63,897 nucleotides of DNA, from the IMG/VR virus record IMGVR_UViG_3300046782_000223, positions 1 to 63,897 of that record; one strand, written 5' to 3'. Position numbers and translations under genes: made by a program. Source of the DNA: a virus. Taxonomy: Duplodnaviria; Caudoviricetes. The first letter of the stretch is position 1. Each line of letters opens with the position of its first letter. Below are positions 12,486 through 42,188 of this stretch, in pieces. The notes beneath the pieces are model-generated. The model saw nothing but the letters and a program-made list of their open reading frames with translations. It was not told the DNA's origin and searched no databases.

Positions 12486-12515
12486 GGCCGCAATTGCCCA
12501 CGGGCAATTGCGGCC
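12486..12515. promoter_or_regulatory. AATTGCC-N4-GGCAATT box 1 (extended 13-bp arms)
   Basis: ggccgcAATTGCC cacg GGCAATTgcggcc, upstream of the HTH gene. Confidence 0.8.
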
Positions 12516-12534
12516 CGAGGTCGGCGTGGGAGGA

Positions 12535-13635
12535 TCAGTCCTCGTCGCCCTCGTCCCCTTCGTCGTCGTCGAACCCGGCGAGCACGCCTTCCAGTTCGGC
12601 CAGGGCGGCGTCACCGAGGGTCGCGTCAGCCTGCGGCGCGGCGGCGGCCTGCGTCGGCGCAGCGGCGGGAGCGGCCTTGGACGCCCCGAACCCCTTGCGC
12701 TTGGGCTGCTCGGCGACCGGCTCCGGCTCGGGAGCCGGGGCCTGGGCGGCGGCCGCCGCTGCATCCGCCGCGATCTCGGCCTTGGTCCGGCGCTTGCGCT
12801 TCGGCTCCTCGGCGGCGGGGGCCGCCGCGCCCGGCGCGGTCTGCGCCAGCTTGTCGAACGGGTCCTCAGCCGGGGCGGGCTGCGCGGCCGCGGCCTCGCG
12901 CGCCGCCTGCGAGGGCGGGCGCATGGCCGTGATCGAGAGGACGAGATCGTCCTCCTGCATGCCCATGACCTGGGCCAGTTCGTCCTCCTCAAGCCACCGC
13001 TCCGGCGTGAACGTCAGCGCCGGGTAGGCCAGCGAGGCGTCGAAGCCGATACGCGTGACCAGCGCCTGATACGGCCAGCCGCGCTTTTCCAGCTGCGAGC
13101 CGTAGGCCAGCAGCGTCTTGAGCGAGGCCGCCGGGCAGCGCAGCAGCATGGGGTTTTCGAGGTCGTCGACCGCGGCCACGGCCATGCGCCGGCTGTCGGC
13201 GCACGCCTTCCCGCGCGAGCCGTTGTCGCTGATCTTCGACCCCCACTCGTTGTGCGGGCACGCGCCGCACGCCTTGGACTGCTTCTCCTGGGCGTCGGCG
13301 GCGGGCAGGATGCCGTCGTCGGAGTGGCAGAGCGGGCGCTCGGTCGAGCCTTCCTCGTAGCCGTCGGGGTAGTAGACCTTGTTCAGCGCCGGGTTGGCGC
13401 GGATGATGACGGCTTCCAGGGAGGCCGCCGGGTCGTTGGCGTTGCGGCCCTCGCCCACGGTCACCAGCGTGCGCTCGCCCGCCTCGACGACGTGCCAGAC
13501 CTTCCCCTTGTAGGAGATGATCGGGTAGCCCGCCGAGACGTTGGCCGCGAGGTCCGAGTTGGACGCCTGCGGGAACATGGCGCGGATGTGGGCGGGGACC
13601 TGCGATCCCAGACCGGTGGTCAGTTCAGTCGACAT
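12535..13635 (-). CDS. Putative ssDNA-binding/annealing protein
   Basis: IISYKGKVW; C-x-S-x-DG and CxxCP..GS..G..C Zn motifs; acidic C-terminal tail DDDEGDEGDED; replication module context. Confidence 0.6.
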   Translation of the reverse strand: MSTELTTGLGSQVPAHIRAMFPQASNSDLAANVSAGYPIISYKGKVWHVVEAGERTLVTVGEGRNANDPAASLEAVIIRANPALNKVYYPDGYEEGSTERPLCHSDDGILPAADAQEKQSKACGACPHNEWGSKISDNGSRGKACADSRRMAVAAVDDLENPMLLRCPAASLKTLLAYGSQLEKRGWPYQALVTRIGFDASLAYPALTFTPERWLEEDELAQVMGMQEDDLVLSITAMRPPSQAAREAAAAQPAPAEDPFDKLAQTAPGAAAPAAEEPKRKRRTKAEIAADAAAAAAQAPAPEPEPVAEQPKRKGFGASKAAPAAAPTQAAAAPQADATLGDAALAELEGVLAGFDDDEGDEGDED

Positions 13636-13651
13636 ATGTGTTAGTCCTCTC

Positions 13652-14044
13652 TCAGGATGCGCGGCGCACGTTCAGCGACGCGATGCGGTTGTAGGTGATG
13701 CCGGGCGGCAGGTCGTTGTTCTCCGCCACGTACTCGTCGACCTGGGTCTTGGCCACGCGCTTCTCTAGGAAGTTCCACGCGTCGTTGGTGCGCACGAAGT
13801 CGAGGAACGCGTCCATATCGTTGACGGTCGCGCTCGACTTCACCGCCCGATAGGCGGTGCCGGCGTCGCACTTGGCGCTGTCCATGCCGTGCGCGTTGAA
13901 GAAGTCGAGGATGGCGGCCTCGGTCTTGTCCATCGCCGCGATCAGCGGTTCGAGCTTGGTCTTGTGCGCGGCGTCCAGCTTCGCCTTCATGTCCCGCGCC
14001 GCGATGTACTTGGTGACGAGGTTGGTGATGTTCATCTCTGCCAT
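13652..14044 (-). CDS. Conserved phage replication-module protein
   Basis: Coiled coil plus GTAY...D.DAF...LPPGI pattern typical of genes next to phage SSBs; good SD. Confidence 0.6.
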   Translation of the reverse strand: MAEMNITNLVTKYIAARDMKAKLDAAHKTKLEPLIAAMDKTEAAILDFFNAHGMDSAKCDAGTAYRAVKSSATVNDMDAFLDFVRTNDAWNFLEKRVAKTQVDEYVAENNDLPPGITYNRIASLNVRRAS

Positions 14045-14081
14045 GGGTTCTCCTTCAAGTGGCGATCTCCTACTGTCTATT

Positions 14082-14110
14082 AGTATACACTAGTGTACGG
14101 GGCAAGTCAA
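14082..14110 (-). promoter_or_regulatory. Sigma70-type promoter
   Basis: TTGACT-N17-TATACT on the - strand. Confidence 0.8.
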
Positions 14111-14111
14111 G

Positions 14112-15662
14112 TCACACGCCCGTCTCCGCTTCGACGGTTTCGAGCAGAAGCCCCTGCATTTTCTGCTTCCCGGCCAGCCTGCGGAACGCCCCGCGCTCGA
14201 CCGCCGAGCTCTCGATGTTGACGATGAACTGCTGATGCTTCTGCCCGGGACGCGTGATGCGCGCGTTGGCCTGGGTGTAGGTCTCGTTGCTCAGCGTCGG
14301 GCCGTACCAGATGATCGTGTTCGCCGCCGTCAGCGTCAAGCCGTGGCTCATGGCCGCCGGCTGCGCGCACAGCGCGTCGAGGTCCCCCTTCTGGAACTGG
14401 TGGAAGATCAGGGCGCGCTGCGCCTGGGGCACGTCGCCGCTGACCACGCCCACCTTGAGCCCGGTCTTGGCCATCTCGTCGGCCACGTAGCGCAGGACCG
14501 ACTTGTAGGGCACGAAGACGATCGACTTGGTGTGCGCCTCCTCGATGATGCGCAGCACCTCGGCGATGCGTGGCTGGTTGGGCAGCACGATCTCCTCGCC
14601 GCCGCGGCCATAGACCACGCCGCAGGCGATCTGGATCAGCTTGCTCATCTTCACCGCCTCATTGACGGCGGTCACCTGCCCGGCCCCGTACTCCATCCAC
14701 AGCTTGGTCAGCATGGTCTTGTAGGCGGTGGCCTGCTCGCTGGTCATGGCCACCTCGCGGGTGACGTACATGCACTCGGGCAGGTCCACGCACTGGTCGC
14801 GGGTGAACCTGATCGCCGGCTGCATCGCATCGTGGACGGTGCCGGTGGCGTTGCTGCGCGGGAGCCAGCGGAACGGCCCCTGCGCCTTCATCACCATGTC
14901 GCGGAACTTGCCGAAGAACGTGGGCACGCGTTCGGGGCAGACGATGCGGCACTGAGCCCATGCGTCGGTCGGCGCGTTGGGCGTCGGCGTCCCGGTCATC
15001 CACCAGATACGCTCGATATTGCCCACAACACGTCGCAGGGTTTTCCACAGCTTGGTCGTGGCGTTGCGGAAGATCGCCCCCTCGTCGACCACGATGATAT
15101 CGAACTGCTTGGCGATCAGCGCCGCCTCGACCACGCCCAGGCCGTGGTGGTTGATGACGTAGACGTCGTAGCTGTCGTCGGCCAGGATGCGCAGGCGGCG
15201 GGCCTTGTCGCCGTAGACGATGCCGACCTGCATCTTCGGGAAGTTCTCGAACACCTCGTCGGCCCAGGTCCGCTCCAACGTGGAGAGCGGGGCCACCACC
15301 AGCATCTTCTTCACCTTGCCGATCTTGCGCAGGTAGTCGAATGCCCACAGCGCCGCCAGGGTTTTGCCTGTTCCCATATCGTTCAGGACGAAGGCGCGCA
15401 GGTGCAGCGTCAGGAACTGCGCCGTCATGCGCTGGGCGTGGAACGGGTCGTGGCGGCCGGGCCAGCGGTAGTGGTGAAGGATCGGTGATGGGGCCGGCAG
15501 GCCGAGGTTACGCAGGACGCGCACCTCGTCGAGCCGATGCGGCACGCAGACCAGCGGCTGTCCCCGGAAGTGGAACAGCCGCGCCGACGGAATGACATGC
15601 GTCACCCGCGCCGGGTTCTTGAGGTTCATCACCAGCTTGCGAGAGGCGGTCGAGACGATCAT
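14112..15662 (-). CDS. SNF2-family (SF2) helicase
   Basis: DMGTGKT, VVDEG, MTGTP, SHGLTL and QANARI.RPGQ motifs; start set at MIVSTAS, overlapping the upstream stop. Confidence 0.9.
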   Translation of the reverse strand: MIVSTASRKLVMNLKNPARVTHVIPSARLFHFRGQPLVCVPHRLDEVRVLRNLGLPAPSPILHHYRWPGRHDPFHAQRMTAQFLTLHLRAFVLNDMGTGKTLAALWAFDYLRKIGKVKKMLVVAPLSTLERTWADEVFENFPKMQVGIVYGDKARRLRILADDSYDVYVINHHGLGVVEAALIAKQFDIIVVDEGAIFRNATTKLWKTLRRVVGNIERIWWMTGTPTPNAPTDAWAQCRIVCPERVPTFFGKFRDMVMKAQGPFRWLPRSNATGTVHDAMQPAIRFTRDQCVDLPECMYVTREVAMTSEQATAYKTMLTKLWMEYGAGQVTAVNEAVKMSKLIQIACGVVYGRGGEEIVLPNQPRIAEVLRIIEEAHTKSIVFVPYKSVLRYVADEMAKTGLKVGVVSGDVPQAQRALIFHQFQKGDLDALCAQPAAMSHGLTLTAANTIIWYGPTLSNETYTQANARITRPGQKHQQFIVNIESSAVERGAFRRLAGKQKMQGLLLETVEAETGV

Positions 15663-15979
15663 GCCTTGGCGTGCTCCAACATGCGGTCGATCAGGTGGAT
15701 CAGTTCCTCGACGGCCTGCACGCTGTCGGCGGCGATCGCCCACCCCTGAGCATCGTTGATGGCGGCGATCTGCATGTGCTGCAGGGCCGTCACATTCTTC
15801 AGCTTGCCGGGGGCCTTCACCTCGACGGCGAAGAACACACCCTGGTAGCAGCCGATCACGTCGGGGATGCCGTTGACCCCGTAGCCGTGCGCGGCTGGGA
15901 AGAAGAAGAAGCACTTGGGCAGGCTGCGCAAGTACATCTTGATCGACGCCTTCACCTTCGCCTCAGGAGTGTTAGCCAT
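15659..15979 (-). CDS. VRR-NUC domain nuclease
   Basis: TPE.KV...GIPD....G.F.AVEVK.P....T.LQ. Confidence 0.85.
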   Translation of the reverse strand: MANTPEAKVKASIKMYLRSLPKCFFFFPAAHGYGVNGIPDVIGCYQGVFFAVEVKAPGKLKNVTALQHMQIAAINDAQGWAIAADSVQAVEELIHLIDRMLEHAKA

Positions 15980-16553
15980 GCCGCACCCGGCGCTTCCACG
16001 TCTGCTGGATCACGCGGACCTGCCGCAGGCAGTCGACCAGGGCGTCGTGCTTCTGGCCGGTCTGCTCGTGCAGCGTCTTGGTGCCGCCTTCCCAGCACAG
16101 GTTATCGTCGCCGGCGATCATGCTCATGGTGCGCATGTCGCGGATGGCGCGGTAGGACCACGGGATCGGCAGGTGGGCCTGCTGGTAGGCCAGTTCCAGC
16201 ATCACCACGTCGAAGGTCGGGCCGTTGCTCCACAGCCCCTCCGGCGCTTCGCCGATGCGGGTGAACCACTCGGTCAGGGCGCGCAGCCCGTGGTCGAGCG
16301 GCATGCCCTTGCCCTCAAGGATTTCCACCAGCAGCGCCGGGTCGGTCTTCGCCCACCACGCCACCGTGGACGCGTCGATGCGGCGGTTGAACGGGGGACC
16401 CATGCTGGACGCCGCCTCGATGGTGACGTGGAACATCGGGGTGCGGTCGGCCGGGCCGTCGCCAGTGAGCGCGAAGGCTACGGCTCCGATCTGGATAATC
16501 GGGGCCGTCACCGGGGAGGTCCCCAGCGTTTCGAGGTCGATCATGATATGCAA
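15972..16553 (-). CDS. DEDDh 3'-5' exonuclease
   Basis: MIDLETL..IIQIGAV, WSNG.TFD, RDMRT, HDALVD. Confidence 0.85.
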   Translation of the reverse strand: MHIMIDLETLGTSPVTAPIIQIGAVAFALTGDGPADRTPMFHVTIEAASSMGPPFNRRIDASTVAWWAKTDPALLVEILEGKGMPLDHGLRALTEWFTRIGEAPEGLWSNGPTFDVVMLELAYQQAHLPIPWSYRAIRDMRTMSMIAGDDNLCWEGGTKTLHEQTGQKHDALVDCLRQVRVIQQTWKRRVRHG

Positions 16554-16554
16554 G

Positions 16555-17232
16555 TCAGGCTCCTGAATGTTCGCACTTGGCCCGAGGCACCGGGCAATGG
16601 GCCTTGCAAAGGCCGGACGGTCGTTTCGGCCACGCGTTGTTGGCGTGGGCGTTCTCTAGGCGGGCGACCCGGGGCAGGAATTCCCGCCACAGGTTGGGCG
16701 CGTCGACGCGGTGGAACACCTCGGAGGTGAACCGCTGCGTCGGGTCCGGCTCGTCCAGCCAGATGAAGCTGTTCCTGATCTCGTTGAGCCAGGGCTTCTG
16801 CGCGAACAGCACCACGGCCGAGAGCTTCAACTGCGCGCTGTCGGACTTGCGCTTGCCGGTCTTCCAGTCGCCGACGAATGCCTTGGTCCCCTTGAACACG
16901 GAGACGTCGGTGATCGCCCGCACCCACACGTCCTTCGCGAACCACGTCGTGGTCGTGTAGCTCTGGGTCAGGGCCATCTGGGTCTCGGCCTCGATCTTCC
17001 CGCCCACGGCCAGGGCCTCCATCCTGGCCACGAGTGGCTCGTGCTTGCCCAGGTCACCGGGCAGCACGACGCCGTGCTTGATGCGCTTCTCGAACGACCC
17101 ATGCACCGCGCGCCCCCTGGCCATCGCTTGGCCTGGGGGGTCGACCACTTCCTTGGTGACCTTCGTCAGGTAGTGCCGCCAAGGGCACGTCTCAAAGCTC
17201 TCCAAGACGGAGTGCGACCACGCCTGCGTCAT
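16555..17232 (-). CDS. PD-(D/E)xK (Cas4/RecB-like) nuclease
   Basis: WSHS..F..CP, G..VH, D...DWKTGK, QL, LC..CP..C; start set at MTQAWS. Confidence 0.85.
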   Translation of the reverse strand: MTQAWSHSVLESFETCPWRHYLTKVTKEVVDPPGQAMARGRAVHGSFEKRIKHGVVLPGDLGKHEPLVARMEALAVGGKIEAETQMALTQSYTTTTWFAKDVWVRAITDVSVFKGTKAFVGDWKTGKRKSDSAQLKLSAVVLFAQKPWLNEIRNSFIWLDEPDPTQRFTSEVFHRVDAPNLWREFLPRVARLENAHANNAWPKRPSGLCKAHCPVPRAKCEHSGA

Positions 17233-17747
17233 GCCACGGCCCTCTTGTGCAGGTCCGCGATGTTCGCGTCCAACTGCCGGTCGAGTGTGGCCCAGAACTG
17301 GCGGATCGCCACCAGCCTTTCCTCGCCCGACATGACGTCCTGCTCGGCCAGGAATTGCGCGCGGGCCTGCTCCCACCGACGGCGGATGGCGGCCATCGTG
17401 GAGACGCGTTCAGGCCCCTTGATCGGACCGCTGCGCGCCTCGTGCAGGACCAGGGCTTTGGCCATGCGCTTGCGGCGCTCGCGCATGATGTTGCGCTGGT
17501 AGTCGCGCTTGGCCACCTTGGGGTTCTCGAGCCTCTTGCGTTCGACCAGGGCCAGCACCGCCTCGAACGCGTCGCGGTTCTTCACCCCGACGGCGATCAG
17601 GGCGTTGAGGCTGGCGCGGTCGCCGGCGTAGGCGACCCCGTGGTCCGGCCAGTTCTCGATGGTGCGCGTCATCTCCTGGGTCAGCACGCTGTAGTCGGCG
17701 GCGTCGATCAGGTAGCTGACCGCGGCGACGACACGGTCATTTGCCAT
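17229..17747 (-). CDS. Hypothetical protein
   Basis: SD, ATGA coupling to the next gene, genome-typical codon use. Confidence 0.7.
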   Translation of the reverse strand: MANDRVVAAVSYLIDAADYSVLTQEMTRTIENWPDHGVAYAGDRASLNALIAVGVKNRDAFEAVLALVERKRLENPKVAKRDYQRNIMRERRKRMAKALVLHEARSGPIKGPERVSTMAAIRRRWEQARAQFLAEQDVMSGEERLVAIRQFWATLDRQLDANIADLHKRAVA

Positions 17748-17803
17748 TGGGTGTCTCCGAACTGATAGACGCTTTCGTGCGTCGTTGTGCTGCTGATGTA
17801 GGG

Positions 17804-18283
17804 CTAGTCATGATCGTAGACCAGCACCTCGCCGCCGCCCCCCGCGAGGTCGCGCAGGTCGACGTATTCGACGTCGCCGCCGCAGAAGACGTTCAGTTCG
17901 CAGGCCAGGGCCGCGGCCCCCATTGCGTGGCGACCCATCTTCAACGCCGCCCTGGCGATCTCCCCGCCGCAGCCGGCGGTGAACTCGGTGACCGGGAACA
18001 GGATCGGGGCAGGCCACGTCTGGAAGACCACCACCGGCTTCTCGTACTGGAACACGTACAGGTAGGCGTCCTTGGCCCGGTCCGGCGCATGGGGGAAGGT
18101 GGCCGGGTTCCGGCCCAGCTTGAACCACACGACTAGCGCCTCGCCGTGGTCGGCCGCGCCGGAGGTGGCCAGCACCTTGTCCTCGAACACCTCGATCTTG
18201 CGGGTGCGCAGGTGCAGCCCGCTGTCGTTGACGATGTAGGTGTCGGCGGCAACGTGCTCGCCGTCGTATGCGATGACTGTCAT
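17804..18283 (-). CDS. Putative Ntn-hydrolase (HslV/proteasome-beta-like) peptidase
   Basis: N-terminal M-T-V-I-A-Y-D-G...AAD; GCG...A.AA....A..A; coupled to the polymerase stop. Confidence 0.6.
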   Translation of the reverse strand: MTVIAYDGEHVAADTYIVNDSGLHLRTRKIEVFEDKVLATSGAADHGEALVVWFKLGRNPATFPHAPDRAKDAYLYVFQYEKPVVVFQTWPAPILFPVTEFTAGCGGEIARAALKMGRHAMGAAALACELNVFCGGDVEYVDLRDLAGGGGEVLVYDHD

Positions 18284-20199
18284 TTGATCTCCTTGAGAGC
18301 GCCCCAATGCGGGCCGCGTTTGACGTCTACGGGAAACTCGATGGGCAGGGTTCGACCCCAGGCCCGCTTGTAGGGCAGGTTGCTCAGCAGCTGCTTCAGG
18401 TCCCTCGCCGCACGCTCAGCGTACGGCTTCGGGACCCTGAAGAACATGCCGTCGTGTAGCTCCATCAGGAACCGCCCGCCCACCTTGGGTAGGTAGTCCC
18501 GGGCCACCAGCAGGGCGAGGTACTTCTGATCGGCCCCGACCCCCTGGATGGGGAAGTTGATGCTCGTGCTCTCATGCGCCCAGGTCCAGTCGAAGGGCAC
18601 ACCTTCATCGTCGAAGCCCTTCCACTTGTGAAAATCGCCCAGGTTTACGCGCCGTCCGGCAAGCGTCTCGACGTAGCCCTGCGTCTTGGCGATCTGAATT
18701 TGCTTCGACCAGTAGCGCGGCACGCCGCGGTAGGACTTGCGGTAGGCCCCGACGATCGTGACGCTCTCGACGTCCGTCAGGTAGACGCCGTGCTGCACAG
18801 CCGCCACGCGTCGCAGCGTGGGTGGGCCGGTGCGGTACTGGCACGACAGGTTGCCCACCTTGCCCAGCTTCCTGATCTTCTTGGCGGCCGGGTCCTCCTC
18901 GCGGTTCTCCTTGATCCAGTCGTAGCTAAGCTCTGGCTTGATCTGCGAGGCCATGTAGGAGTGCGCGTCCTGGCCGGGCATGCACAGCCCGAGCATGACG
19001 GCGTCGCCGCTCTCGACCGCCATCCAGCGAAACTCCTGGCCGGCGAAGTCGGCCTCGATCAGTTCGCTGTCGTCGTCCACCTCGATCAGCGCCCGGTACT
19101 CGGGGTCGTTCACCCACTGGTGGATGGCCACGCCGGAGGGGACCTGCGCCTTGCCCTTGCCGATCTTCGACGAGTAGGTGCAGCGCCCGGTGTAGGTGCC
19201 GAAGATGCGGCAGTCCGGCCGGACGTGGCCGTCGCCGTTGTAGTCCAGGCTTTCCAGCGCCCCGTCGGCGAACTTGGTCCGCCGGGTCTGGCACTCCCGG
19301 TAGGTGTGGATCAGGTTGGCGCGCGGGTCCTCTAGGCCGAGGATCGCCAGCGCCTCCTTGTCGGTCGACGGCGCACCCTTGTCGGTGAGGTGTGGCGCGT
19401 TCAGGCCCCAGGTCTCGTAGAGCAGGCTGGCCAGCTGCTTGGGCGAGGCCAGCACCTTCTCCCATTCGAGCATGCCCTCGGTCATGGCCAGCTGCACCAG
19501 GGCGACGTCGCGCTTCTCCGTCAGGCGGGCCGCCAGGACCCGCGCACGGTCGGCGTTGACCATCAGCCCGGCCACCTTGCTGTCGGCCACCAGCGGGATG
19601 CAGCGGGCCTCTAGCAGGGCATTGCGCTGCACCTTCTCGGGCAGCGACTGCAGCAGGTAGGCGACGATGCGCAGGGTGAAGCGACAGTCACGCTGGTTGT
19701 AGAACAGCAGCCGCTCCCACTCGGCCTCGCTCATCGGGTTGAAGGTGACGCCTTCCTCGTAGCCCGCCTCGTCGGGGAAGAACTCGACCACCGCCTCCTT
19801 GAGGCCGAGCGACATGCGTCCTTCCTCGCGGTAGCGCGGCGCGTTGATGGCGTGCCGGTAGAGCAGCATGCCGTCCAGCCAGTTGACGGCGAACACCTTG
19901 GCCCTGATCCCCAGGTCCGGGAACATCTCGTCCAGCACCAGCAGCCACGCCACGTCGAAGGGCGCGTTCCAGCACACCACGTACTGGCCGGCCACGGTGT
20001 CCAGCCAGTTGGCCAGTTCCTCCGCGGTCGGATCACGGATCACGTCGGTCTGCAACACGCCGTGATCGTCGTAGTAGGCCACCGCCACGCTGGTCAGCCA
20101 CGCATCGTGGGTGCGCAGGCGGAACGGCTGCAGCGCGAACGGCTCCTCCCGGCCCCAGGTCTCGGTGTCGTAGGCGGTGATGCTGCGGACGTCGATCAT
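18280..20199 (-). CDS. polA: Family A DNA polymerase with 3'-5' exonuclease
   Basis: Exo motifs DTET, NAPFD, YNQRD; TGR; motif A DFAGQEFR; motif B RKLGKVGNLSCQY; NFPIQG; motif C LHDG. Confidence 0.92.
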   Translation of the reverse strand: MIDVRSITAYDTETWGREEPFALQPFRLRTHDAWLTSVAVAYYDDHGVLQTDVIRDPTAEELANWLDTVAGQYVVCWNAPFDVAWLLVLDEMFPDLGIRAKVFAVNWLDGMLLYRHAINAPRYREEGRMSLGLKEAVVEFFPDEAGYEEGVTFNPMSEAEWERLLFYNQRDCRFTLRIVAYLLQSLPEKVQRNALLEARCIPLVADSKVAGLMVNADRARVLAARLTEKRDVALVQLAMTEGMLEWEKVLASPKQLASLLYETWGLNAPHLTDKGAPSTDKEALAILGLEDPRANLIHTYRECQTRRTKFADGALESLDYNGDGHVRPDCRIFGTYTGRCTYSSKIGKGKAQVPSGVAIHQWVNDPEYRALIEVDDDSELIEADFAGQEFRWMAVESGDAVMLGLCMPGQDAHSYMASQIKPELSYDWIKENREEDPAAKKIRKLGKVGNLSCQYRTGPPTLRRVAAVQHGVYLTDVESVTIVGAYRKSYRGVPRYWSKQIQIAKTQGYVETLAGRRVNLGDFHKWKGFDDEGVPFDWTWAHESTSINFPIQGVGADQKYLALLVARDYLPKVGGRFLMELHDGMFFRVPKPYAERAARDLKQLLSNLPYKRAWGRTLPIEFPVDVKRGPHWGALKEIK

Positions 20200-25092: not shown

Positions 25093-25094
25093 CC

Positions 25095-34717: not shown

Positions 34718-34816
34718 GCGGAACACCCGGCCAGCAGCGGGTAGGGGCCTCTGCTGGCCGGGGCCGCCTGGGCCGCCCCCTGGCAGGTGGGGGGTGTTTG
34801 GGGACGGCATGCGGGA

Positions 34817-34972
34817 TCAGCTGAACCGCTCCGAGATCACCTCGCCGAGGATGTGGACGATGCTGACCACAGCCGCGATCACGATGACCCAGAGCACGAT
34901 CGCGAGGGCGGCCGCGAGCAGCCACCCCCACGCTCGGGGCCAGCGTTTAGTCGTGGGCCGCCGGGCAGGCAT
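34817..34972 (-). CDS. Small membrane protein (51 aa, MPARRPTTKRW...)
   Basis: Manual translation; basic N-terminus and long hydrophobic segment. Confidence 0.5.
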   Translation of the reverse strand: MPARRPTTKRWPRAWGWLLAAALAIVLWVIVIAAVVSIVHILGEVISERFS

Positions 34973-35876: not shown

Positions 35877-35908
35877 GTAGGTGCCCCACCTGTTGGGATT
35901 GAGAGGAA

Positions 35909-35932
35909 CGGGGGGAGCCGAAGCTCCCCCCG
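35909..35932 (-). terminator. cUUCGg hairpin (weak terminator or mRNA stabiliser)
   Basis: cggggggagc TTCG gctccccccg followed by ttcctctc on the - strand. Confidence 0.6.
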
Positions 35933-35980
35933 CCTAGTGCAGCCTAAGAAGGAGAACCGCCGCAGCGGCGGTCCTCGTTC

Positions 35981-36331
35981 TTAGAAAGGCCAGGAAGCGT
36001 GGCTCGCCGCGGCCGCCGAACCCGCCTGATTGGCGCCCGAGGTGCTGAGCGACAGGCCCGTCTGGGTGTGGACGGACACGGTCGAACCCGTGGAGGTGCT
36101 GCCCGAGGTGGCGGCGACCGGGCTGAAGAAGCCACGGCTGGCGGCCGCAGCCGCACCGGAGGTGTTGGTGGCGGCGTTCACGCCAACCGACGTGGACGGG
36201 CCGATCGACACGGTCGTCGAGCCGGAGTTGACGGCGGAGTTCGCCGAGGTCGAGGCGGCGATGTCGGCCGAGGCCGCGCCGGCCATCGCCAGCAGAGCCA
36301 GGGCGGCAACGCCCGCGAGCAGGTTCTTCAT
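35981..36331 (-). CDS. Small secreted Ser/Thr/Ala/Gly-rich protein (116 aa)
   Basis: Sec signal MKNLLAGVAALALLAMAGAASA; nearly uncharged mature part. Confidence 0.75.
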   Translation of the reverse strand: MKNLLAGVAALALLAMAGAASADIAASTSANSAVNSGSTTVSIGPSTSVGVNAATNTSGAAAAASRGFFSPVAATSGSTSTGSTVSVHTQTGLSLSTSGANQAGSAAAASHASWPF

Positions 36332-36509
36332 GGAATGCATTCCTGAACTTGAATGAGCGCGAATTGAGCGGGTCGCACCCGTTTCCCCCACCAAGGAAGC
36401 CTTGGCCGCAGCAGGCGTAGCATGGTGTTGTTACGCTTGCCAATAGGTCTTGTGGCGCTTTCGTGACCGACGGCGTTATGATGGGCTGGGGACGCACGGA
36501 GGACACGTC

Positions 36510-36665
36510 ATGGTCGCCACACTCGCCACCGTCCTGCTGGTCGCGGCGATGCTGCTGATCGCCTTCTACACGCCGTACCCGAATGCCTGGATGAAGTGGG
36601 CGGTGCCCATCGCCATCGTCATTGCGGTGCTGCTGCTCGCCGCGCCGCAGTTCATGCACGCCTAG
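36510..36665 (+). CDS. Small two-TM membrane protein (holin-like topology)
   Basis: GGAGG SD; two hydrophobic helices. Confidence 0.6.
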   Translation: MVATLATVLLVAAMLLIAFYTPYPNAWMKWAVPIAIVIAVLLLAAPQFMHA

Positions 36666-36693
36666 ACGCGTGCGTCGTTCACAGGAGGGCCGG

Positions 36694-36843
36694 ATGGCCA
36701 AACCTCCCCCGATGAAGCCGTTCCCGCCCAAGGGCGATGGTGGCGGACAGGCGCTCAAGGGCGCGAAGGGTGGCAAGCCCGGTGCGCCGGCCACGCCCAC
36801 CGGCCGCGGCAAGCCGACCAAGCCCTACCCGCCGGGGTTCTGA
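36694..36843 (+). CDS. Small Pro/Gly/Lys-rich protein (49 aa)
   Basis: AGGAGG SD. Confidence 0.6.
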   Translation: MAKPPPMKPFPPKGDGGGQALKGAKGGKPGAPATPTGRGKPTKPYPPGF

Positions 36844-36844
36844 G

Positions 36845-37111
36845 GTGATCGCCCTGGTGCTGGTCCTGATGCTCGGGACCCCGGACCCGCCTGTGCGCGC
36901 GGGTGATCCCATCCCCGGCGTGCCGAACACGGCCACCGAGGCGGCCAAGCCCAAGCACGACACGGTCAAGAACGCGGTCGGCAACGTGAAGGCGGTGGTC
37001 GCCGAGCCGCCCCCCTGCACGCCCAGCCCGTGCAAGGCGGCGTCAGCGTCCGACCCGATCCCCGGCGTCGACGACGCCCGGCCCACGCCTCAGAAACCGA
37101 AGTTCCCCTAA
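36845..37111 (+). CDS. Pro-rich protein with hydrophobic N-terminus
   Basis: GTG right after the upstream stop; DPIPGV occurs twice. Confidence 0.45.
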   Translation: MIALVLVLMLGTPDPPVRAGDPIPGVPNTATEAAKPKHDTVKNAVGNVKAVVAEPPPCTPSPCKAASASDPIPGVDDARPTPQKPKFP

Positions 37112-37128
37112 CAGGCGAGTGCGAAGCC

Positions 37129-37269
37129 ATGCCCCTGAACAAGTCAGGATCAAAGAAGGCCGTCAGCGAGAACATCAAGACCGAGATCGCCGCCGGTCGC
37201 CCGCAGAAGCAGGCCGTGGCCATCGCGCTGGACACCCAGCGCCGGGCCGGCAAGGGCGGCAAGAAGTAG
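37129..37269 (+). CDS. Small basic conserved phage protein (MPL.K..S...S.NI..E...G.PQKQAVAIA type)
   Basis: Recognisable motif common in phage genomes. Confidence 0.75.
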   Translation: MPLNKSGSKKAVSENIKTEIAAGRPQKQAVAIALDTQRRAGKGGKK

Positions 37270-37280
37270 GGCCGGGACGG

Positions 37281-37319
37281 GACCCCCGCTGCGCATCCGT
37301 CCTTCGCGCGGCGGGGGTC
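37281..37319. terminator. Hairpin between convergent genes
   Basis: gacccccgctgcgc ... gcgcggcgggggtc. Confidence 0.55.
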
Positions 37320-37327
37320 TTGACGCC

Positions 37328-37888
37328 CTAGGACTTGGGAGCCGGGGTGTCAGGCAGTTCGTTGCCCGGGGTGGTCGGCCCACCGCCCGGCAGGGTGTTG
37401 TCGATGCCCGGCTGGTCGCCCGGCAGAGCGTTGTCGGGCCGGTCGCCGCTGACCCCGAAGCCCGGGTCGACCGGGCGCTGGCCGTGCGGCAGGCTGTTGT
37501 CGATCTGGCCGGGGGGTCCGCCCGGCAGTTCGTTGCCCGCGCTCGGGCCGCCGGGGCCGGTGACGACCACCGGGCTGATCTCGCCGCCGATGGCCACGCC
37601 CTTGGCGATCACGGTGATGGAGAGGGTGGCCTCGACCTCGGTCGTGCCCTCGCCCAGGTCGCTGTCGGCGACGGCGGTGATCACGGCTTCACCGGCGCTC
37701 GGGCCGGCGGTGATGGTGGCGATCATGCCGGAGGCGGTCTCGGTGCCGCTGCCCATCTTGGCTTCGACAGAGGCCACGGCGGGGTTGGACGACATCCAGT
37801 CGACGGCTCCGTCGACCTCAGCCGGGTTGCCGCTGGCGTTGACGAATTGGACCGACACGTCGACGGCGTGGTTGGCGAGCAGTTTCAT
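37328..37888 (-). CDS. Ig-like domain protein with C-terminal (D/G)N-x-LP repeats
   Basis: V.W.SSNP.VASV Ig/Big-like motif; GNELP, DNSLP, DNALP, DNTLP, GNELP. Confidence 0.7.
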   Translation of the reverse strand: MKLLANHAVDVSVQFVNASGNPAEVDGAVDWMSSNPAVASVEAKMGSGTETASGMIATITAGPSAGEAVITAVADSDLGEGTTEVEATLSITVIAKGVAIGGEISPVVVTGPGGPSAGNELPGGPPGQIDNSLPHGQRPVDPGFGVSGDRPDNALPGDQPGIDNTLPGGGPTTPGNELPDTPAPKS

Positions 37889-37915
37889 GGGCGCGGCTCC
37901 TGGGCTTGAGTGAAG

Positions 37916-38614
37916 TCACGCTTGTGGCTCAGGATCGTGACGCCTGCAAGTGTGCTGGTTTGTCGTTCTCGGAGGGTCCAGCAGCAGGTCGTAGCCGCTC
38001 AGTCCGCCGTAGTAGCGGCGGCGCAGCGTGGTTTGGTTTATCCCAGACCACGCTGACCAGTCGGTGGCGCACATGGTCAGGCCCAGGAAGGTGATGTTGA
38101 CGTTGATGCGGGTGTTGCGGCGCTGCACGTCGCCCGTCGCCCAGATGCAGTTACCCGGCTCGTAGTCGCCGTTGTTGTCGCGGCGCTCGATCGAGTGCTC
38201 CGGCGTGGGCGGATCACCCATGTCGGCCAGGAAGTTCTCGAACGTACGCCAGCGTTCACAGACGGCGATGCCGCGGGCTCCGTAGAGGTGGTAGTGGTTG
38301 TCGCTCGGGTAGTCGCAGCGTTTCCGCAGGTTCTTCCAGCACTGGTAGACCTTGCTCGATGCGTAGCCCTGCGTGTGACCGTGCCGCAGGCGCAGGTTGG
38401 TGATGCGGTCCAAGGCCAAGCATCCGCAGGAGCGCGTCTGCCCACTCGTCAGTTTCTCGGTCTGGGCCTCGGTCTCCATGCCGCAGGCACACCGGCACAG
38501 CCAGAGGCGGCTACGCCTGCGGCGCGGTGTGTCGCCGTGGCCGGACCCGAGGCACTCGACCGCCGTCAGACGTCCAAACGTCTGGCCGGTGAGGTCCAGG
38601 GGACGTCCAGTCAC
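37916..38614 (-). CDS. HNH homing endonuclease-like protein
   Basis: DLTGQ.FGRL..WLC.C.CG..SCGC; YG.RGI.VC.RW..F..F..DMG; SIER.DN.G.Y.P.NC.WAT. Confidence 0.88.
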   Translation of the reverse strand: MTGRPLDLTGQTFGRLTAVECLGSGHGDTPRRRRSRLWLCRCACGMETEAQTEKLTSGQTRSCGCLALDRITNLRLRHGHTQGYASSKVYQCWKNLRKRCDYPSDNHYHLYGARGIAVCERWRTFENFLADMGDPPTPEHSIERRDNNGDYEPGNCIWATGDVQRRNTRINVNITFLGLTMCATDWSAWSGINQTTLRRRYYGGLSGYDLLLDPPRTTNQHTCRRHDPEPQA

Positions 38615-38910
38615 CGGCGCTTTCCTGCGATGGCCTCTGACACGCGTGCGCTGTTCACCTTGAACTTGGCGGCGATCTCATGGAAGGCCCGGGTCGGATG
38701 GTCGTAGTGGTAGTTGCGGATGCGCGCGGCCAGCACCGGGTTCATCGGCGGGCTGCGGGTGGCCGCCTTGGTCACCGCCGGGCGGCGGTGCATCTCGCTC
38801 TCGATCCACCGCAGCTTCTCGGCCAGGGCCTCGCGTTCGGCGCGCGCCGCGAATGGGAGCCGGTCGGCGATGGCGAGCAGGTCGCGTCTCAGTTCGGGAA
38901 TACGGGCCAT
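38611..38910 (-). CDS. HTH-containing protein
   Basis: C-terminal EIAAKFKVNSARVSEAI. Confidence 0.65.
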   Translation of the reverse strand: MARIPELRRDLLAIADRLPFAARAEREALAEKLRWIESEMHRRPAVTKAATRSPPMNPVLAARIRNYHYDHPTRAFHEIAAKFKVNSARVSEAIAGKRR

Positions 38911-38922
38911 GACACACCCCGG

Positions 38923-39162
38923 TCAGGTCGGATCGCTGGACGGGATGGTGGCCGGCTGGGCCTTGCGACTGCGCTTGCGGCCGCCGCCGCGCGACGCCTG
39001 CCCGCCCTTGGACCCGGCTGAGGTGGCCAGGGCGCGGTCCTTGGCGAACGATCGTTTCTCGCTGGGGACGGATGCGCCGCCCTTGCGGGCGATCTCGCGA
39101 CGTCGCTCGGGGCTCATGGCGGCGAACCCGCGGCGGGCGCGGGGCTTGGGGGCGTCGGTCAT
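38923..39162 (-). CDS. KGG-repeat general stress protein
   Basis: RGFAAMSPERRREIARKGG...LA..AG.KGG. Confidence 0.9.
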   Translation of the reverse strand: MTDAPKPRARRGFAAMSPERRREIARKGGASVPSEKRSFAKDRALATSAGSKGGQASRGGGRKRSRKAQPATIPSSDPT

Positions 39163-39194
39163 GGTTTACTCCTTCACTGTAGGTGTAGCTGTGC

Positions 39195-39212
39195 AATTGC
39201 CCGATGGCAATT
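39195..39212. promoter_or_regulatory. AATTGCC-N4-GGCAATT box 9
   Basis: AATTGCC cgat GGCAATT, upstream of the KGG gene SD. Confidence 0.8.
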
Positions 39213-39219
39213 AGCTCGG

Positions 39220-39528
39220 CTATTCGTTTCGTTGGGTGGTGTCGATCACCTGCTGCATGGCTGCGCAGCGTTCGAGGGCTTCGCAGGCGAGCGGCTCCTC
39301 TAGGAACCCCACGAGGCGCGCATGGACGATGTAGGCGCGGTACTCGTCCAACTCGTCCTGCGAGCAGCGCATGGCCCCCAGCACGTACTGTGCGCGGCCG
39401 TAGTCGGTCAGGATGGCCGCGGTGGCCACGCGCGAGGCCAGCCAGCCGATGCGGTCCTGAAACGCCCCATCGTCGGCGAACCAGCGGTGTTCCAGGGCTT
39501 CCAGGGCGCTCAAGGCCACGTCAGTCAC
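39220..39528 (-). CDS. Hypothetical protein
   Basis: Overlap-coupled ORF. Confidence 0.55.
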   Translation of the reverse strand: MTDVALSALEALEHRWFADDGAFQDRIGWLASRVATAAILTDYGRAQYVLGAMRCSQDELDEYRAYIVHARLVGFLEEPLACEALERCAAMQQVIDTTQRNE

Positions 39529-39766
39529 GCCCGTCGTAGAAGCGCGAGCGCCGCCACTTGGTCAGGGCCTTGCGGTAGCCTTCGGCCCCCGCCTCCTGAT
39601 CGGCGGCCTCCAAGGTCGCAATGGCCAGGATGGCCATGAACCTATCCCACTGGCGACGCGTACATCTGCCCACGTCCAGGGCCATGAGCAGCCCCTCGAA
39701 CTCGACCACGATCTCCGGGGGGAGCGGGTCGTTGGGGCGCATCCATTTTACGTCGATGGCTGGCAT
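39521..39766 (-). CDS. Hypothetical protein
   Basis: Overlap-coupled ORF. Confidence 0.55.
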   Translation of the reverse strand: MPAIDVKWMRPNDPLPPEIVVEFEGLLMALDVGRCTRRQWDRFMAILAIATLEAADQEAGAEGYRKALTKWRRSRFYDGRD

Positions 39767-40077
39767 GGCGGGGACGCGTCCCTGAGTATGGCCTCGACCA
39801 GCTTGGTCAGGTCATTGCCGGTGTCGAGGCTGATCTCCCCGGTCAGGACCAGCGCGGTCACCGCGGCCCTGTATTGCGCGACCGGCATGTGAATGTCGGG
39901 CAGGTCGATGGTGGCGTCCTGCTCGGCCACCGCACGCAGCATGCGGCTCAGGCCCACGGTGTCCACGTCGTGGATCAGGGCGCGCACCGCAGGGTCGCGA
40001 AGGCGGTCGGGGTTGTCGTTCAGACTGGCCACGCGATGATCCCGGAATTTTAGAGCCACAGGTAGCGCAGCGGGCAT
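39748..40077 (-). CDS. Hypothetical protein (MPAALPVALK...)
   Basis: Protein-like C-terminal part of the long ORF; start uncertain. Confidence 0.5.
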   Translation of the reverse strand: MPAALPVALKFRDHRVASLNDNPDRLRDPAVRALIHDVDTVGLSRMLRAVAEQDATIDLPDIHMPVAQYRAAVTALVLTGEISLDTGNDLTKLVEAILRDASPPCQPST

Positions 40078-40499
40078 CTCCACCACTGGTGCTCGATGGC
40101 GTCCAGCACATGGGCGGTGACGTCCGGCTGGCCAGTGGCCAACGCGTTCTCGATGAGGATGGCGCGCAGGAGCTTGTAGCGCCGGCGGCTGATGCGCCGC
40201 TGGGCCAGGGCGTTCACGAGCGGGGACGCGCGCTGATAGATTTCGTCGGGGACCATCAACTCCCATGCGGAGGCGAAGTGGAGATGCAGCGTGGGCTGGG
40301 TGGGCGGCAGGCGAAGGCCAAGCCACCCCATCCAGCCTGGACGCAGGTGCTTGTGACCCATGCGCACCGTCACGCCCACGGCGATGCGCGCTCCATCCTC
40401 GCCCATTGGGAAGACGGGTCCACCTGCGTTCGATCGGGGTTGTTGGCTCGGAAGCGTCATCAGAGGTTGGTCTCCCAGGTTCGGGGCGTATTGATCCAC
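40050..40499 (-). CDS. Hypothetical protein
   Basis: Operon position; start uncertain. Confidence 0.5.
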   Translation of the reverse strand: MDQYAPNLGDQPLMTLPSQQPRSNAGGPVFPMGEDGARIAVGVTVRMGHKHLRPGWMGWLGLRLPPTQPTLHLHFASAWELMVPDEIYQRASPLVNALAQRRISRRRYKLLRAILIENALATGQPDVTAHVLDAIEHQWWRCPLRYLWL

Positions 40500-40771
40500 A
40501 CATGCTGAAGGTATGCCAAGAACTCTTTGGTGAGGTCCACCTGCCCGGTGACGATTGCGTTATGCGCCAGCCAACTCCGCAGGCGATGATAGTCGCGCCG
40601 GTTCAGGGTTTCGGTTTTAGCGAGAAGCAGGATCGCGAGATAGGCGTTTACGTGGTGCGTCATCTCATATGTGGCCAAGGGATCGGCCGTAAGTAGCGAG
40701 TACGCGCGGTTTTGTAGGTGACGTGGGCCACTCATCGCGGTGTCGGAACGCTTAAATTTAGGTGTCGGCAT
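40460..40771 (-). CDS. Hypothetical protein
   Basis: First ORF after the AT-rich region; candidate TTGACT-N18-TACCTT promoter upstream. Confidence 0.5.
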   Translation of the reverse strand: MPTPKFKRSDTAMSGPRHLQNRAYSLLTADPLATYEMTHHVNAYLAILLLAKTETLNRRDYHRLRSWLAHNAIVTGQVDLTKEFLAYLQHVWINTPRTWETNL

Positions 40772-40789
40772 GGCTTAAAGGTACGATTA

Positions 40790-41165
40790 GAGCGTGGCCG
40801 TAGTCAAGCAGGCCACTGATTTTGCTGGGAGAGTTGGCAATTTTCCGCAATTTACACGGGGAGGGCTGAAGTTTTCACGCGGATGCTCAATGAAATCAAT
40901 TACTTGACATAATTTTCATTTTTACACGGCAAAACAGGGGAGCGTGATTTGGTTTTGGGTGGATTTTAGGCCGCCGAGATAATTTTATCTCACGCCCGCG
41001 CGCATACGAGCTTATACTTTTTTGAATGTAAATTATGTAAAGATGTAAAGAACCTAAAAACCCCTGATAAATCAGTGCGTTACTATTTACATTCTAATTT
41101 ACACGGCCTGTTAGCTCGTAGAAGTGTAAGGAAATCAAAGCGGTGGCCGATCCGCAGGATTTTGA
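40790..41165. other. AT-rich non-coding region, putative replication origin
   Basis: Sharp GC drop; TTTACACGG three times (40851, 40921, 41098) and clustered TGTAAA. Confidence 0.55.
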
Positions 41166-41238
41166 TTTCCCCTCGTGGCCGACCGCGGGATTTTGATATG
41201 CAGTCGTGGCCTAACACGCCGGCCACGCGTCCGCCGCT

Positions 41239-41256
41239 AATTGCCAGCTGGCAATT
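41239..41256. promoter_or_regulatory. AATTGCC-N4-GGCAATT box 10 (perfect palindrome)
   Basis: AATTGCC agct GGCAATT, just past the terminator. Confidence 0.8.
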
Positions 41257-41263
41257 GGGCAAT

Positions 41264-41295
41264 AAAAAACCCCCACGCGTTTCCGCGTGGGGGTT
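41264..41295 (-). terminator. Rho-independent terminator
   Basis: cccccacgcg GAAA cgcgtggggg followed by TTTTTT on the - strand. Confidence 0.9.
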
Positions 41296-41308
41296 CTGTT
41301 AGTGGCCG

Positions 41309-42127
41309 TTAGGCGTTGGCCGCCGCGCCGTTGGCTTTAGCAGGCGCTTTCGCGCTTGCCAAAACCGCCTTGGCGTTCGCGCGAGCGTCCGCCTTCGCGC
41401 CGTCGGCGACAATGCCAAGGGACCATTTGTCATATTCGGAACGATACTCAGTGAGGATCGTAACGAGACGCTTGGCCGCCTGATCGTTGCCGCGCATCAG
41501 GATCAGCGCGGCGGCGAGCGCGGGCTTAACGTCAAGCCCGCCTTCCGCGTCCGCGACCGTTCCCGCGCTCGCCGCTTGCGCGGCGACCGTGACGGGCTTC
41601 GCGTTGCTCGCCTTAGCGCCAGCCTTGCGACCGCGCTTGCTAGTCGCCTTTCCAGTGACGGAAGGCGCGACCATAGGCGTTCCGTCCGCCAGCTTGAAAG
41701 TCTCAAGCAACGGGCGAACGCGACGCAAGTAAGCGTCGCGGCTTTCCCCGGCGGACGGCGCAAGCGACGCGTCGCCGGTAAGCAACGCGAGCGCGATTAC
41801 CTTAAAGCGGCTCATGTACTCAGTGACGCGTGCGTCATTGAGACCGGAACCCTTAAAGGTTTCCGCCAGCGTCGGGCGCATTTGCTTATCCCATTGGCCA
41901 TAGGTCAACGGGACGCCAATGGCCGCCGCAATGAGACGCGTCCGCGCCACAAAGGTCGCGGACGCGCCTTCCGTTTCGACCGCCAGCTTGACGAAAGCCG
42001 TAGAGACCGCGAGCGCGGTATCAGCGGAAAGCGTCAAGGCGAGCGGAGCCGAGGCTTGCGCGACGTCCAAAGCCGGAGCCGAAACGGTGGAAACCGGAGC
42101 GGCGACCGTGGTTTGCTTCTTAGCCAT
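41309..42127 (-). CDS. Ala-rich hypothetical protein, probable first early gene (MAKKQTT...)
   Basis: Own promoter and terminator; AAGGGA SD; atypical codon use. Confidence 0.7.
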   Translation of the reverse strand: MAKKQTTVAAPVSTVSAPALDVAQASAPLALTLSADTALAVSTAFVKLAVETEGASATFVARTRLIAAAIGVPLTYGQWDKQMRPTLAETFKGSGLNDARVTEYMSRFKVIALALLTGDASLAPSAGESRDAYLRRVRPLLETFKLADGTPMVAPSVTGKATSKRGRKAGAKASNAKPVTVAAQAASAGTVADAEGGLDVKPALAAALILMRGNDQAAKRLVTILTEYRSEYDKWSLGIVADGAKADARANAKAVLASAKAPAKANGAAANA

Positions 42128-42170
42128 AGTGTGTATCCCTTTGAAAAGATTGAACAAAAGAGAGGCTCGC

Positions 42171-42188
42171 AATTGCCATAGGGCAATT
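42171..42188. promoter_or_regulatory. AATTGCC-N4-GGCAATT box 11
   Basis: gcAATTGCC atag GGCAATTgc. Confidence 0.8.

Follow-up and report, generated by a model that had tools for sequence, protein, structure and literature searches.

Genome-specific palindromes at conserved positions in the early arm of an uncultured phage group: candidate duplex-DNA sites for a phage-encoded regulator

Dispersed regulatory sites that are private to one genome are known mainly from temperate actinobacteriophages, as stoperators and as extended start-associated sequences (ESAS). In the excerpts of two studies drawn on here, the stoperators of Cluster A phages such as L5 and Bxb1 are described as dispersed sites that are syntenic between phages, follow a phage-specific consensus and are proposed to block transcript elongation (PMC6550527, PMC9283540), and that change in concert with their repressors (PMC6550527). 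The consulted part of the ESAS description presents these Cluster K elements as inverted repeats that stand before the starts of orthologous non-structural genes, carry lineage-specific bases and have no assigned function (PMC3203893). Here we describe what appears to be the same logic, built from perfect dyads, in an uncultured soil/rhizosphere phage group. The DNA under study is the complete 63,897-bp record IMGVR_UViG_3300046782_000223 from IMG/VR, referred to as the window and labelled G000 in comparisons between genomes, and the element in question is the palindrome AATTGCC-N4-GGCAATT, which recurs along its early/replication arm.

Palindromic operators and small stem-loops are also familiar from other phages. 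The Streptomyces phage phiC31 carries conserved inverted repeats (CIRs), palindromic operators for the c repressor that recur, with strong conservation, between genes of the early arm; phiC31 is temperate, has a known repressor and is unrelated to the present phage in sequence, host and lineage. The nut/boxB elements of lambda are small stem-loops near early promoters, with conserved loop bases, two or three copies and a sequence that co-varies with a phage-specific protein. T4-type phages contain promoter early stem-loops (PeSL), characterized in the portion of the source used here as repeated intergenic stem-loop elements bordering variable genes (PMC4122927).

Palindrome families of the window and its relatives

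A pattern search of the window recovered 11 exact copies of AATTGCC-N4-GGCAATT (AATTGCCNNNNGGCAATT), starting at positions 12492, 22004, 24813, 26139, 29546, 31162, 31686, 34700, 39195, 41239 and 42171, and thereby reproduced every coordinate given in a first-pass annotation of this DNA. The same 18-mer pattern had no match in 100 dinucleotide-preserving shuffles. With up to two mismatches tolerated, the search still returned 11 palindromes against 0.04 expected and, because it adds nothing, there are no degenerate copies. As first described, the arms are invariant and enclose a spacer of constant length (4 nucleotides, nt) and varying letters, with 10 different tetranucleotides in the 11 copies; AGCG (24813 and 26139) reappears as its reverse complement, CGCT, in the copy at 29546, so that related spacers occur in both orientations. 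The conserved unit is the 18-bp dyad alone, and the flanking DNA is not conserved.

Inspection of the placement of these copies reveals a strong bias. The minus-strand arm makes up 51.5% of the genome and holds all 11 palindromes (P = 6.7e-4), consistent with the earlier statement that the plus-strand structural arm has no full copy. Nine of them fall within the non-coding 12.75% of that arm (P = 3.8e-7), where the coding/non-coding split follows our own gene calls based on G+C content at third codon positions. In nine cases a minus-strand start codon follows 15-43 nt downstream, and a Shine-Dalgarno (SD) sequence, GAAGGA or GGAG, intervenes, so that this part of the first-pass annotation also stands. 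The exceptions are the copies at 34700, separated by 166 nt from the ATG at 34533, and at 41239, downstream of which ~470 nt are non-coding. Two palindromes lie downstream of promoters and the others at gene boundaries.

Searches with PolA and with an 89-amino-acid (aa) protein identified four complete sister genomes in IMG/VR, namely G001, G002, G003 and G006, whose PolA proteins are 78%, 70%, 72% and 71% identical to that of the window, respectively. A census of all perfect dyads in each genome indicates one dominant dyad family in every one of the five: AATTGCC-N4-GGCAATT in the window (11 copies), AATTGCC-N3-GGCAATT in G001 (8 copies), GATTGCAC-N-GTGCAATC in G002 (11 copies), AATTGCT-N4-AGCAATT in G003 (6 copies) and GTTTACCCCGGGGTAAAC, of the GTTTACC-CCGG type, in G006 (10-12 copies). 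Despite the differing palindromes, the orthologous positions A, B, C, E and H (26139, 29546, 12492, 31686 and 41239 in the window) are occupied in 5/5 genomes. At least six arm sequences and four spacings are seen among close relatives. Copies that are uniform within a genome and different between genomes at the same places point to a trans-acting partner that reads the sequence. The palindromes are a real, non-random, phage-wide cis system, as the first-pass annotation had proposed, and the presence of different palindromes at orthologous positions of sister phages supports this strongly.

More distant relatives were found to carry dyads of their own. A megablast search with 20 kb gave no match among cultured phages, and at the protein level the closest PolA is that of Xanthomonas phage Xp15 (31% identity) and the closest capsid protein that of Rhizobium phage RHph_TM3_14A (45% identity), a distant cultured relative whose gene architecture equals that of the window. 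The first 50 kb of RHph_TM3_14A contain 24 copies of TTACC-N6-GGTAA, distributed over both arms, and a dyad begins 3 nt past the -10 element of a TTGACA-17-TATATG promoter. Further families are TTACCG-N4 in L166, TCACGCCC-C-GGGCGTGA in L171 (seven copies) and GTTACC-N5 in L234; L168 and L197, which are less clearly related, each have their own dyad family too. Among control viral loci of at least 6 kb, 0/37 had such a dyad family, and viral contigs scanned for the window motif gave single-copy, chance-like occurrences among the matches listed. In 8.7 kb of L163, a 44%-identical relative found through its ATPase, an AT-rich gap contains just two TTTACATGTAAA dyads, and a dispersed set is absent.

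Positions 2734-19746 of the L197 contig (IMG/VR, 82 kb) include eight copies of TGCAAC-NN-GTTGCA, and only the family of a 99-aa helix-turn-helix (HTH) protein is common to this contig and the window. Three of the eight dyads are located between an intrinsic terminator and a TTGACA promoter, 6-11 nt upstream of the -35 element.

Duplex-DNA sites and rival explanations

The sites of the five genomes are invariant within a genome, conserved in position, replaced in concert between genomes and symmetric in their half-sites. From these sequence patterns we favor, at a probability of about 0.5, the interpretation that the palindromes are read as duplex DNA by a phage-encoded regulator with two-fold symmetry, which would bind them as operators or roadblocks and repress by doing so. 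Of the four options initially put forward, operators or roadblocks for a dimeric phage protein are the best supported; the accompanying suggestion of an autoregulating 89-aa HTH protein fell away, since the same recognition helix occurs in G003 and G006. The regulator would most likely be dimeric, with each monomer reading one half-site Y-AATTGCC (Y, pyrimidine) and with the 4-nt spacer left without contacts. Most sites appear to lie inside transcription units, either at ~+40 of two promoters of consensus type or in the interval that separates a stop codon from the following SD, and given this placement occupied sites would act mainly as roadblocks or operators. They could in this way time the expression of the early/replication arm, or turn it off, one unit at a time, as Cluster A stoperators do. 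The regulator and its ~10 sites would have drifted together, and such joint drift would account for the private palindrome of each sister phage at the same positions.

A sign of symmetric recognition comes from the base immediately outside the arm, which is a pyrimidine in 70/72 half-sites of G000-G003 (P = 6e-19), or 22/22 in G000, 14/16 in G001, 22/22 in G002 and 12/12 in G003. Read along the sense strand of G000, the flanks form C.G in three cases, U.A in one, U.G in two and C.A in five, with no preference for pairing. The flanks are thus symmetric yet non-complementary, which indicates symmetry of recognition and not base pairing. In G002 the dyad symmetry extends to a C-N-G center in 9/11 copies, and these bases would be unable to pair in a hairpin because the loop would be 1 nt.

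These observations bear directly on the possibility that the palindromes act in leader RNA, folded into a 7-bp stem with a tetraloop, and serve processing, stabilization, nut-like antitermination or translational control through a sequence-specific factor. We regard this as unlikely, while giving it real weight. Ten of the 11 copies are in transcribed sequence, and nine precede a start codon with a strong SD by 15-43 nt, one of these starts being internal and in frame. The two copies at ~+40 of promoters recall lambda nutL, which lies at a similar distance from pL, and every arm change between phages preserves pairing. The flanks described above, a pyrimidine 5' and a purine 3' that form C.A in 5/11 copies, speak against a stem-loop, as do the varying loop letters, given that RNA-protein hairpins such as boxB and MS2 rely on loop bases. 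In 5/5 genomes position H is found 7-45 nt past a canonical terminator. It therefore falls past the 3' end of the terminated transcript, on the wrong side for an element of the nut type. G.U pairs are absent from the 77 arm pairs of G000 and frequent in the adjacent leader stem-loop designated hairpin 1. In an alignment of ten leaders, hairpin 1 exhibits G.U pairs and compensatory changes that differ by site, in the manner of a plain RNA helix, and across the same ten sequences none of the seven palindrome pairs is altered on one side alone. As an RNA, the core stem amounts to -6.4 to -7.7 kcal/mol, a weak value, and at 26139 it loses to a competing fold; an Rfam scan of the window matched no family. 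Dyads of other lineages occupy classical operator positions, with some copies in L197 and RHph_TM3_14A located upstream of the -35 element or upstream of or across the predicted transcription start. Overall, the RNA option raised in the first-pass annotation is weakened by the non-complementary flanks, the varying spacers and the location of site H after a terminator.

Other findings weigh against duplex-DNA recognition and, in part, in favor of an RNA element. The arms of G000 and G001 are identical and the spacing is N4 in one and N3 in the other, which a hairpin would accommodate as a trivial change of loop length and a rigid dimer only with difficulty. The dyad of position C invariably sits atop a long, GC-rich and covarying hairpin, and in L023, L029 and L030 a plain hairpin with a UUCG or UCCG loop replaces it, which argues that stem-loop formation matters at position C at least. 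In L171 the central base is identical in 7/7 copies and the 3' flank is asymmetric, hinting at orientation dependence, and the palindrome at 22004, inside an open reading frame (ORF), is followed in G000 as in G001 by an SD and then an ATG in frame. Screening of the arm proteins yielded no convincing binder. The arm encodes only two HTH proteins, each with a near-invariant recognition helix despite the unrelated palindromes. No repressor, integrase or partition family was detected among 49 ORF products in Pfam or 50 in PHROGs, where many small ORFs match no family and absence is not proven.

Of the two HTH proteins, the 89-aa protein (12189-12458, minus strand) is encoded directly downstream of site C, and its orthologues are 70-86% identical. 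Its recognition helix, GRV(T/S)CSYWLNG, is the same in G003 (AATTGCT-N4) and G006 (GTTTACC-CCGG), and a helix shared by phages with unrelated dyads cannot set specificity, so that the protein was rejected as the specificity determinant. The 99-aa protein (38611-38910, minus strand), considered as a candidate trans factor, has a C-terminal HTH (...NSARVSEAIAGKR), belongs to PHROG 23243 and occurs in all five genomes, with its gene in an operon downstream of site 39195. Across 28 aligned family members the third helix, GRVSE.LAGKR, hardly varies. The family occurs at 80 viral loci, 13 of which have a palindrome repeated at least three times, or 11 after removal of L192 (an AT repeat) and L207 (GACGTC arms). 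These 11 include the four sister phages as well as L166, L171 and L234, which are relatives at the genome level, and because of this kinship the association between HTH protein and dyad may reflect mere ancestry. No homologue was detectable in the first 50 kb of RHph_TM3_14A, and a PDB profile search returned CENP-B as the best match at a non-significant E = 0.41. Given the invariant helix, the possible effect of ancestry and the lack of a homologue in that part of the Rhizobium phage, the 99-aa protein is not supported as the binder.

The third protein considered is the product of gene 1 (41309-42127, minus strand), a 272-aa early protein rich in Ala and Lys. It is the most diverged gene common to the sister phages, with identities of 39, 32 and 27%. 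Several homologues contain a KRGRK stretch, a dyad is found ahead of the gene in 3/4 genomes, and homologues are confined to this phage group and are all annotated as hypothetical. We infer no more than a candidate trans factor from these features.

The lack of a convincing phage-encoded binder leaves some room for a host-encoded regulator exploited by the phage, with the differences between sister phages reflecting different hosts. Dyads of the TTG-N8-CAA type may also be similar to the sites of CRP/FNR-type host regulators. We nonetheless judge a host origin to be improbable. The invariant 18-mer of G006 has just seven scattered single-copy matches in 185,579 species genomes, which belong to unrelated genomes, are near the chance number and are never multi-copy, and this argues for a phage-borne and not a host-borne partner. 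At least six arm sequences and four spacings in close relatives would need as many host regulators, and perfect invariance in 11/11 copies is unusual for a host regulon. A role as dispersed partition or loading sites, likewise suggested at the outset, found no counterpart in the Pfam and PHROGs scans of ORF products described above, which returned no ParB/SopB-like or other partition family.

Recombination joints of the PeSL kind, at which co-infecting relatives would exchange accessory cassettes, are an explanation to which we give little credence. The proposed check of breakpoints was carried out and produced a trend only: gene-content breakpoints coincide with 7/8 gene boundaries that bear a site versus 20/42 without one, and the variable gene is usually just upstream of the dyad. 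The difference is not significant (Fisher P = 0.055), and intergenic gaps suit both cassettes and sites. Furthermore, the palindrome is not common to the sister phages, so the sites would be unable to serve exchange between them; 18 bp with a variable center is very short for homologous exchange, and the genes next to the five universally occupied sites belong to the conserved core. Least credible of all, in our estimation, are extruded hairpin promoters for a phage RNA polymerase resembling the virion RNA polymerase of N4, perhaps contained within a 2454-aa virion protein. This giant structural-arm protein and an N4 gp49-family protein are indeed present, the sites closely precede genes, and the stem-loop size is like that of N4 early promoters as portrayed in the accessible part of the N4 study (PMC4496689). 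The giant protein, however, has no RNA-polymerase signal (0 Pfam families, 0 PDB matches at E <= 1, and PHROG matches that are DarB-like or of unknown function). Recognition in N4 needs conserved loop bases, which vary here; N4 has three promoters at one genome end in contrast to 11 copies over 30 kb; and consensus host-type promoters already drive these units.

Returning to a symmetric phage regulator of duplex DNA, a further-reaching proposal can be put forward only tentatively. A lytic-looking soil phage lineage might encode a regulator of an undescribed family whose specificity and ~10 operators have been re-coded in concert in each sister phage, giving a private early-arm code that insulates it from co-infecting relatives. 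If true, the re-coding covers arm letters, half-site spacing and even central bases, and the insulation works like heteroimmunity in phages that have no recognizable lysogeny module. The five genomes constitute a natural experiment, with similar divergence and a different palindrome at the same positions, at least five in number, which makes the partner findable by pull-down or, given more genomes, by co-variation. They also offer a compact system for how a regulator and many operators shift specificity together. If binders were found, the palindromes would provide ready-made, mutually orthogonal operator sets for synthetic biology.

Individual sites, leaders and surrounding genes

Two of the sites lie in the leaders of sigma-70-type promoters, P_A (26203-26231) and P_E (31746-31774), both on the minus strand. 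Each has the form TTGACA-17-TATACT, matches 11/12 consensus positions, was returned by a promoter scan and is conserved in the five genomes. The first-pass annotation had named three promoters, and those at 26.2 and 31.7 kb are these two; the one at 42.3 kb was not returned by the scan, and a weaker element, TTGACG-17-GACACT (42338-42310), is conserved there in an alignment of four genomes. Downstream of P_E and P_A the palindrome begins 42 and 46 nt past the -10 element, respectively, and is therefore placed in the leader without overlapping -35 or -10, as had been noted. The leader order is promoter, 5' stem-loop, C-rich linker, palindrome (~+40 to +57), SD and ATG. Position A (26139-26156) is in the leader of the gene for an AAA (MoxR-like) ATPase, 15 nt before its ATG and 15-18 nt before the ATPase start across the five genomes. 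Position E (31686-31703) follows the second consensus promoter and lies 25 nt before the ATG of a 48-aa gene.

The 5' stem-loop of these leaders, hairpin 1, extends from 26174 to 26196 between P_A and the palindrome (-15.5 kcal/mol, z -3.6) and from 31715 to 31739 between P_E and the palindrome (-15.1 kcal/mol, z -4.3), on the minus strand in both cases. It begins a few nt past the predicted transcription start of both consensus promoters and occupies the same place in G001, G002, G003 and G006, with a partly conserved sequence, ACAGTTGGrGAT...CCAGCTG. It is probably an mRNA-stabilizing 5' hairpin.

Position C (12492-12509) lies between a 366-aa gene and the 89-aa HTH gene. The palindrome is nested there in the longest palindrome, with 13-nt arms at 12486-12515, which stands 33 nt ahead of the HTH gene in agreement with the initial description; the extended hairpin reaches -26.4 kcal/mol in the window. 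Position B (29546-29563) is 19 nt upstream of a 537-aa gene and 2 nt past the upstream stop codon, and position D (24813-24830), occupied in 4/5 genomes, is 24 nt upstream of a 289-aa gene and overlaps the stop codon of the upstream accessory gene. The copy at 42171-42188 precedes gene 1, with which the arm opens, by 43 nt, and a corresponding site is found in 3/4 assessable genomes. Position H (41239-41256) is 7 nt past the T-run of the intrinsic terminator of gene 1 (41264-41293, minus strand), an arrangement kept in 5/5 genomes. This terminator has a 14-pair stem followed by U6 (-27.7 kcal/mol, z -7.6) and is not included in the consensus terminator-scan list.

Two copies had been reported inside coding sequence. 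The one at 22004-22021 is indeed in frame inside the ORF 21619-22746, where it is translated as AIASGQL; GAAGGA and then an ATG in the same frame come next, and this arrangement is repeated in G001 at 23005. The 375-aa minus-strand ORF looks like an in-frame fusion of two genes with the palindrome as a translated linker, and the ATG after the palindrome opens the C-terminal domain, which has a PHROG match. G002, G003 and G006 have no site at the corresponding place. The other, at 31162-31179, falls in a short ORF of uncertain coding status and is also 23 nt upstream of a 214-aa gene; both the ORF and the gene are unique to this phage.

The two remaining copies are at 34700-34717 and 39195-39212. 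The former occupies a non-coding gap ahead of the ATG at 34533 (166 nt, as noted above), and in G006 a site lies 36 nt upstream of the orthologue of the gene that starts there. The latter is 32 nt upstream of a KGG-repeat gene, which the 99-aa HTH gene directly follows. The KGG-repeat product (38923-39162, minus strand) is a "stress-induced" protein (PF10685, E = 9e-12) that is 67-79% conserved in all four sister phages.

Partial copies of the motif were noted as well. A third half-site adjoins the dyads at positions A and 31162 (26153-26159 and 31159-31165) and creates a 10-bp palindrome, GGCAATTGCC. Orphan half-sites occur at four other places (10362, 40836, 55374 and 61971), approximately the number expected by chance. 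A single variant dyad, ATTGCAAAAATGCAAT (25556-25571), in the AAA ATPase gene has the ATTGC-N6-GCAAT core and different inner letters, and may be due to chance. None of 40 out of ~695 differences between contigs of four DNA sequencing runs and positions 22001-42000 falls in a palindrome, a result that is not readable as conservation. Twenty-two sequencing runs were found, none of them RNA.

The window as a whole has 67% G+C and a bipartite organization. Structural genes, including those for terminase, portal, capsid and the 2454-aa protein, are on the plus strand (42.6-63.9 kb and 0.07-9.3 kb), and the minus strand carries the early/replication arm (42.1 to 9.3 kb), which encodes PolA, an SNF2 helicase, a DUF927 primase, a PD-(D/E)XK nuclease, the AAA ATPase and a DUF2201 protein. 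A scan of the window for tRNAs found none. The 2454-aa protein (1931-9295, plus strand) matches nothing in Pfam or among PDB sequences, and the PHROGs matched by its C-terminal third comprise giant proteins annotated as DarB-like antirestriction. It is probably an ejected virion protein, and its RHph_TM3_14A counterpart has 2307 aa.

Directly after site H is the ~470-bp non-coding stretch 40775-41238 (minus strand), in a 2-kb bin of 59% G+C. It contains three CCGTGTAAA repeats, several TTTACA motifs and two direct repeats of ~25 nt (AAATCAAAATCC.GCGG.TCGGCCAC), and relatives have GTTAGG repeats at the equivalent place; the stretch could be a replication origin or a regulatory hub. The neighboring 103-aa ORF (40460-40771, minus strand) starts with an ATG 6 nt past a promoter-like element, TTGACT-18-TACCTT, has no SD and may be expressed from a leaderless transcript. 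The accessory genes 34947-35876 and 35981-36394 (minus strand), whose presence varies among the sister phages, encode Ser/Thr/Asn-rich proteins with Gram-negative-looking signal peptides (e.g. MKNLLAGVAALALLAMAGAASA). These signal peptides, together with relatives among Rhizobium and Xanthomonas phages, suggest a proteobacterial host, and the phage group probably infects Proteobacteria.

Comparison with known systems

Among systems built from stem-loops, PeSL elements are portrayed in the part of the study drawn on here as longer composites of a terminator and an early promoter that are conserved between exchanging phages (PMC4122927). In contrast, the present repeat contains no promoter, the two promoters being upstream of the palindrome and outside the repeat, and the sister phages differ in sequence. 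The palindromes resemble N4 hairpin promoters in being small stem-loops near early promoters and, going by the accessible part of the N4 description, differ from these in having a free loop in place of conserved loop bases, 11 copies instead of two or three, and one copy past a terminator (PMC4496689). The two copies at ~+40 of promoters are placed like lambda nut sites, and position H follows a terminator in 5/5 genomes. The family scans of ORF products gave no match to a cognate arginine-rich, N-like protein.

The parallels with Cluster A stoperators are closer. As far as the excerpts of the stoperator studies extend, both systems consist of many near-identical short sites spread through the transcribed genome, most of them away from promoters, with 20-30 sites in stoperator phages and 11 here, and in both, related phages have a different consensus at syntenic sites. 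In the present group this concerted difference covers five genomes; in stoperator phages it goes in step with the repressor. On the same accounts, stoperators are asymmetric sites of 13-14 bp that are oriented with transcription and recognized by a monomeric immunity repressor, unlike the perfect dyads described here, which are restricted to one arm and have spacers in both orientations. Stoperator phages are also reported there to be temperate with an immunity repressor, and the present Pfam and PHROG scans, of 49 and 50 ORF products, brought up none of the repressor, integrase or partition families.

ESAS elements are comparable in position. To the extent that the consulted text covers them, they too are spaced inverted repeats just upstream of starts, as for 9/11 copies here, and are kept at orthologous genes, as for the five positions occupied in 5/5 genomes. 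The same text describes imperfect 17-bp repeats whose spacer ranges from 4 to 13 bp within a genome and which are coupled to a 13-bp asymmetric start-associated sequence (SAS) (PMC3203893). Unlike ESAS, the palindromes of this phage group have perfect arms of 7-8 bp and a spacing that is fixed per genome, and what follows them is a normal SD of the GAAGGA or GGAG type. In behavior, then, the palindromes are closest to Cluster A stoperators and Cluster K ESAS, and they are a member of neither.

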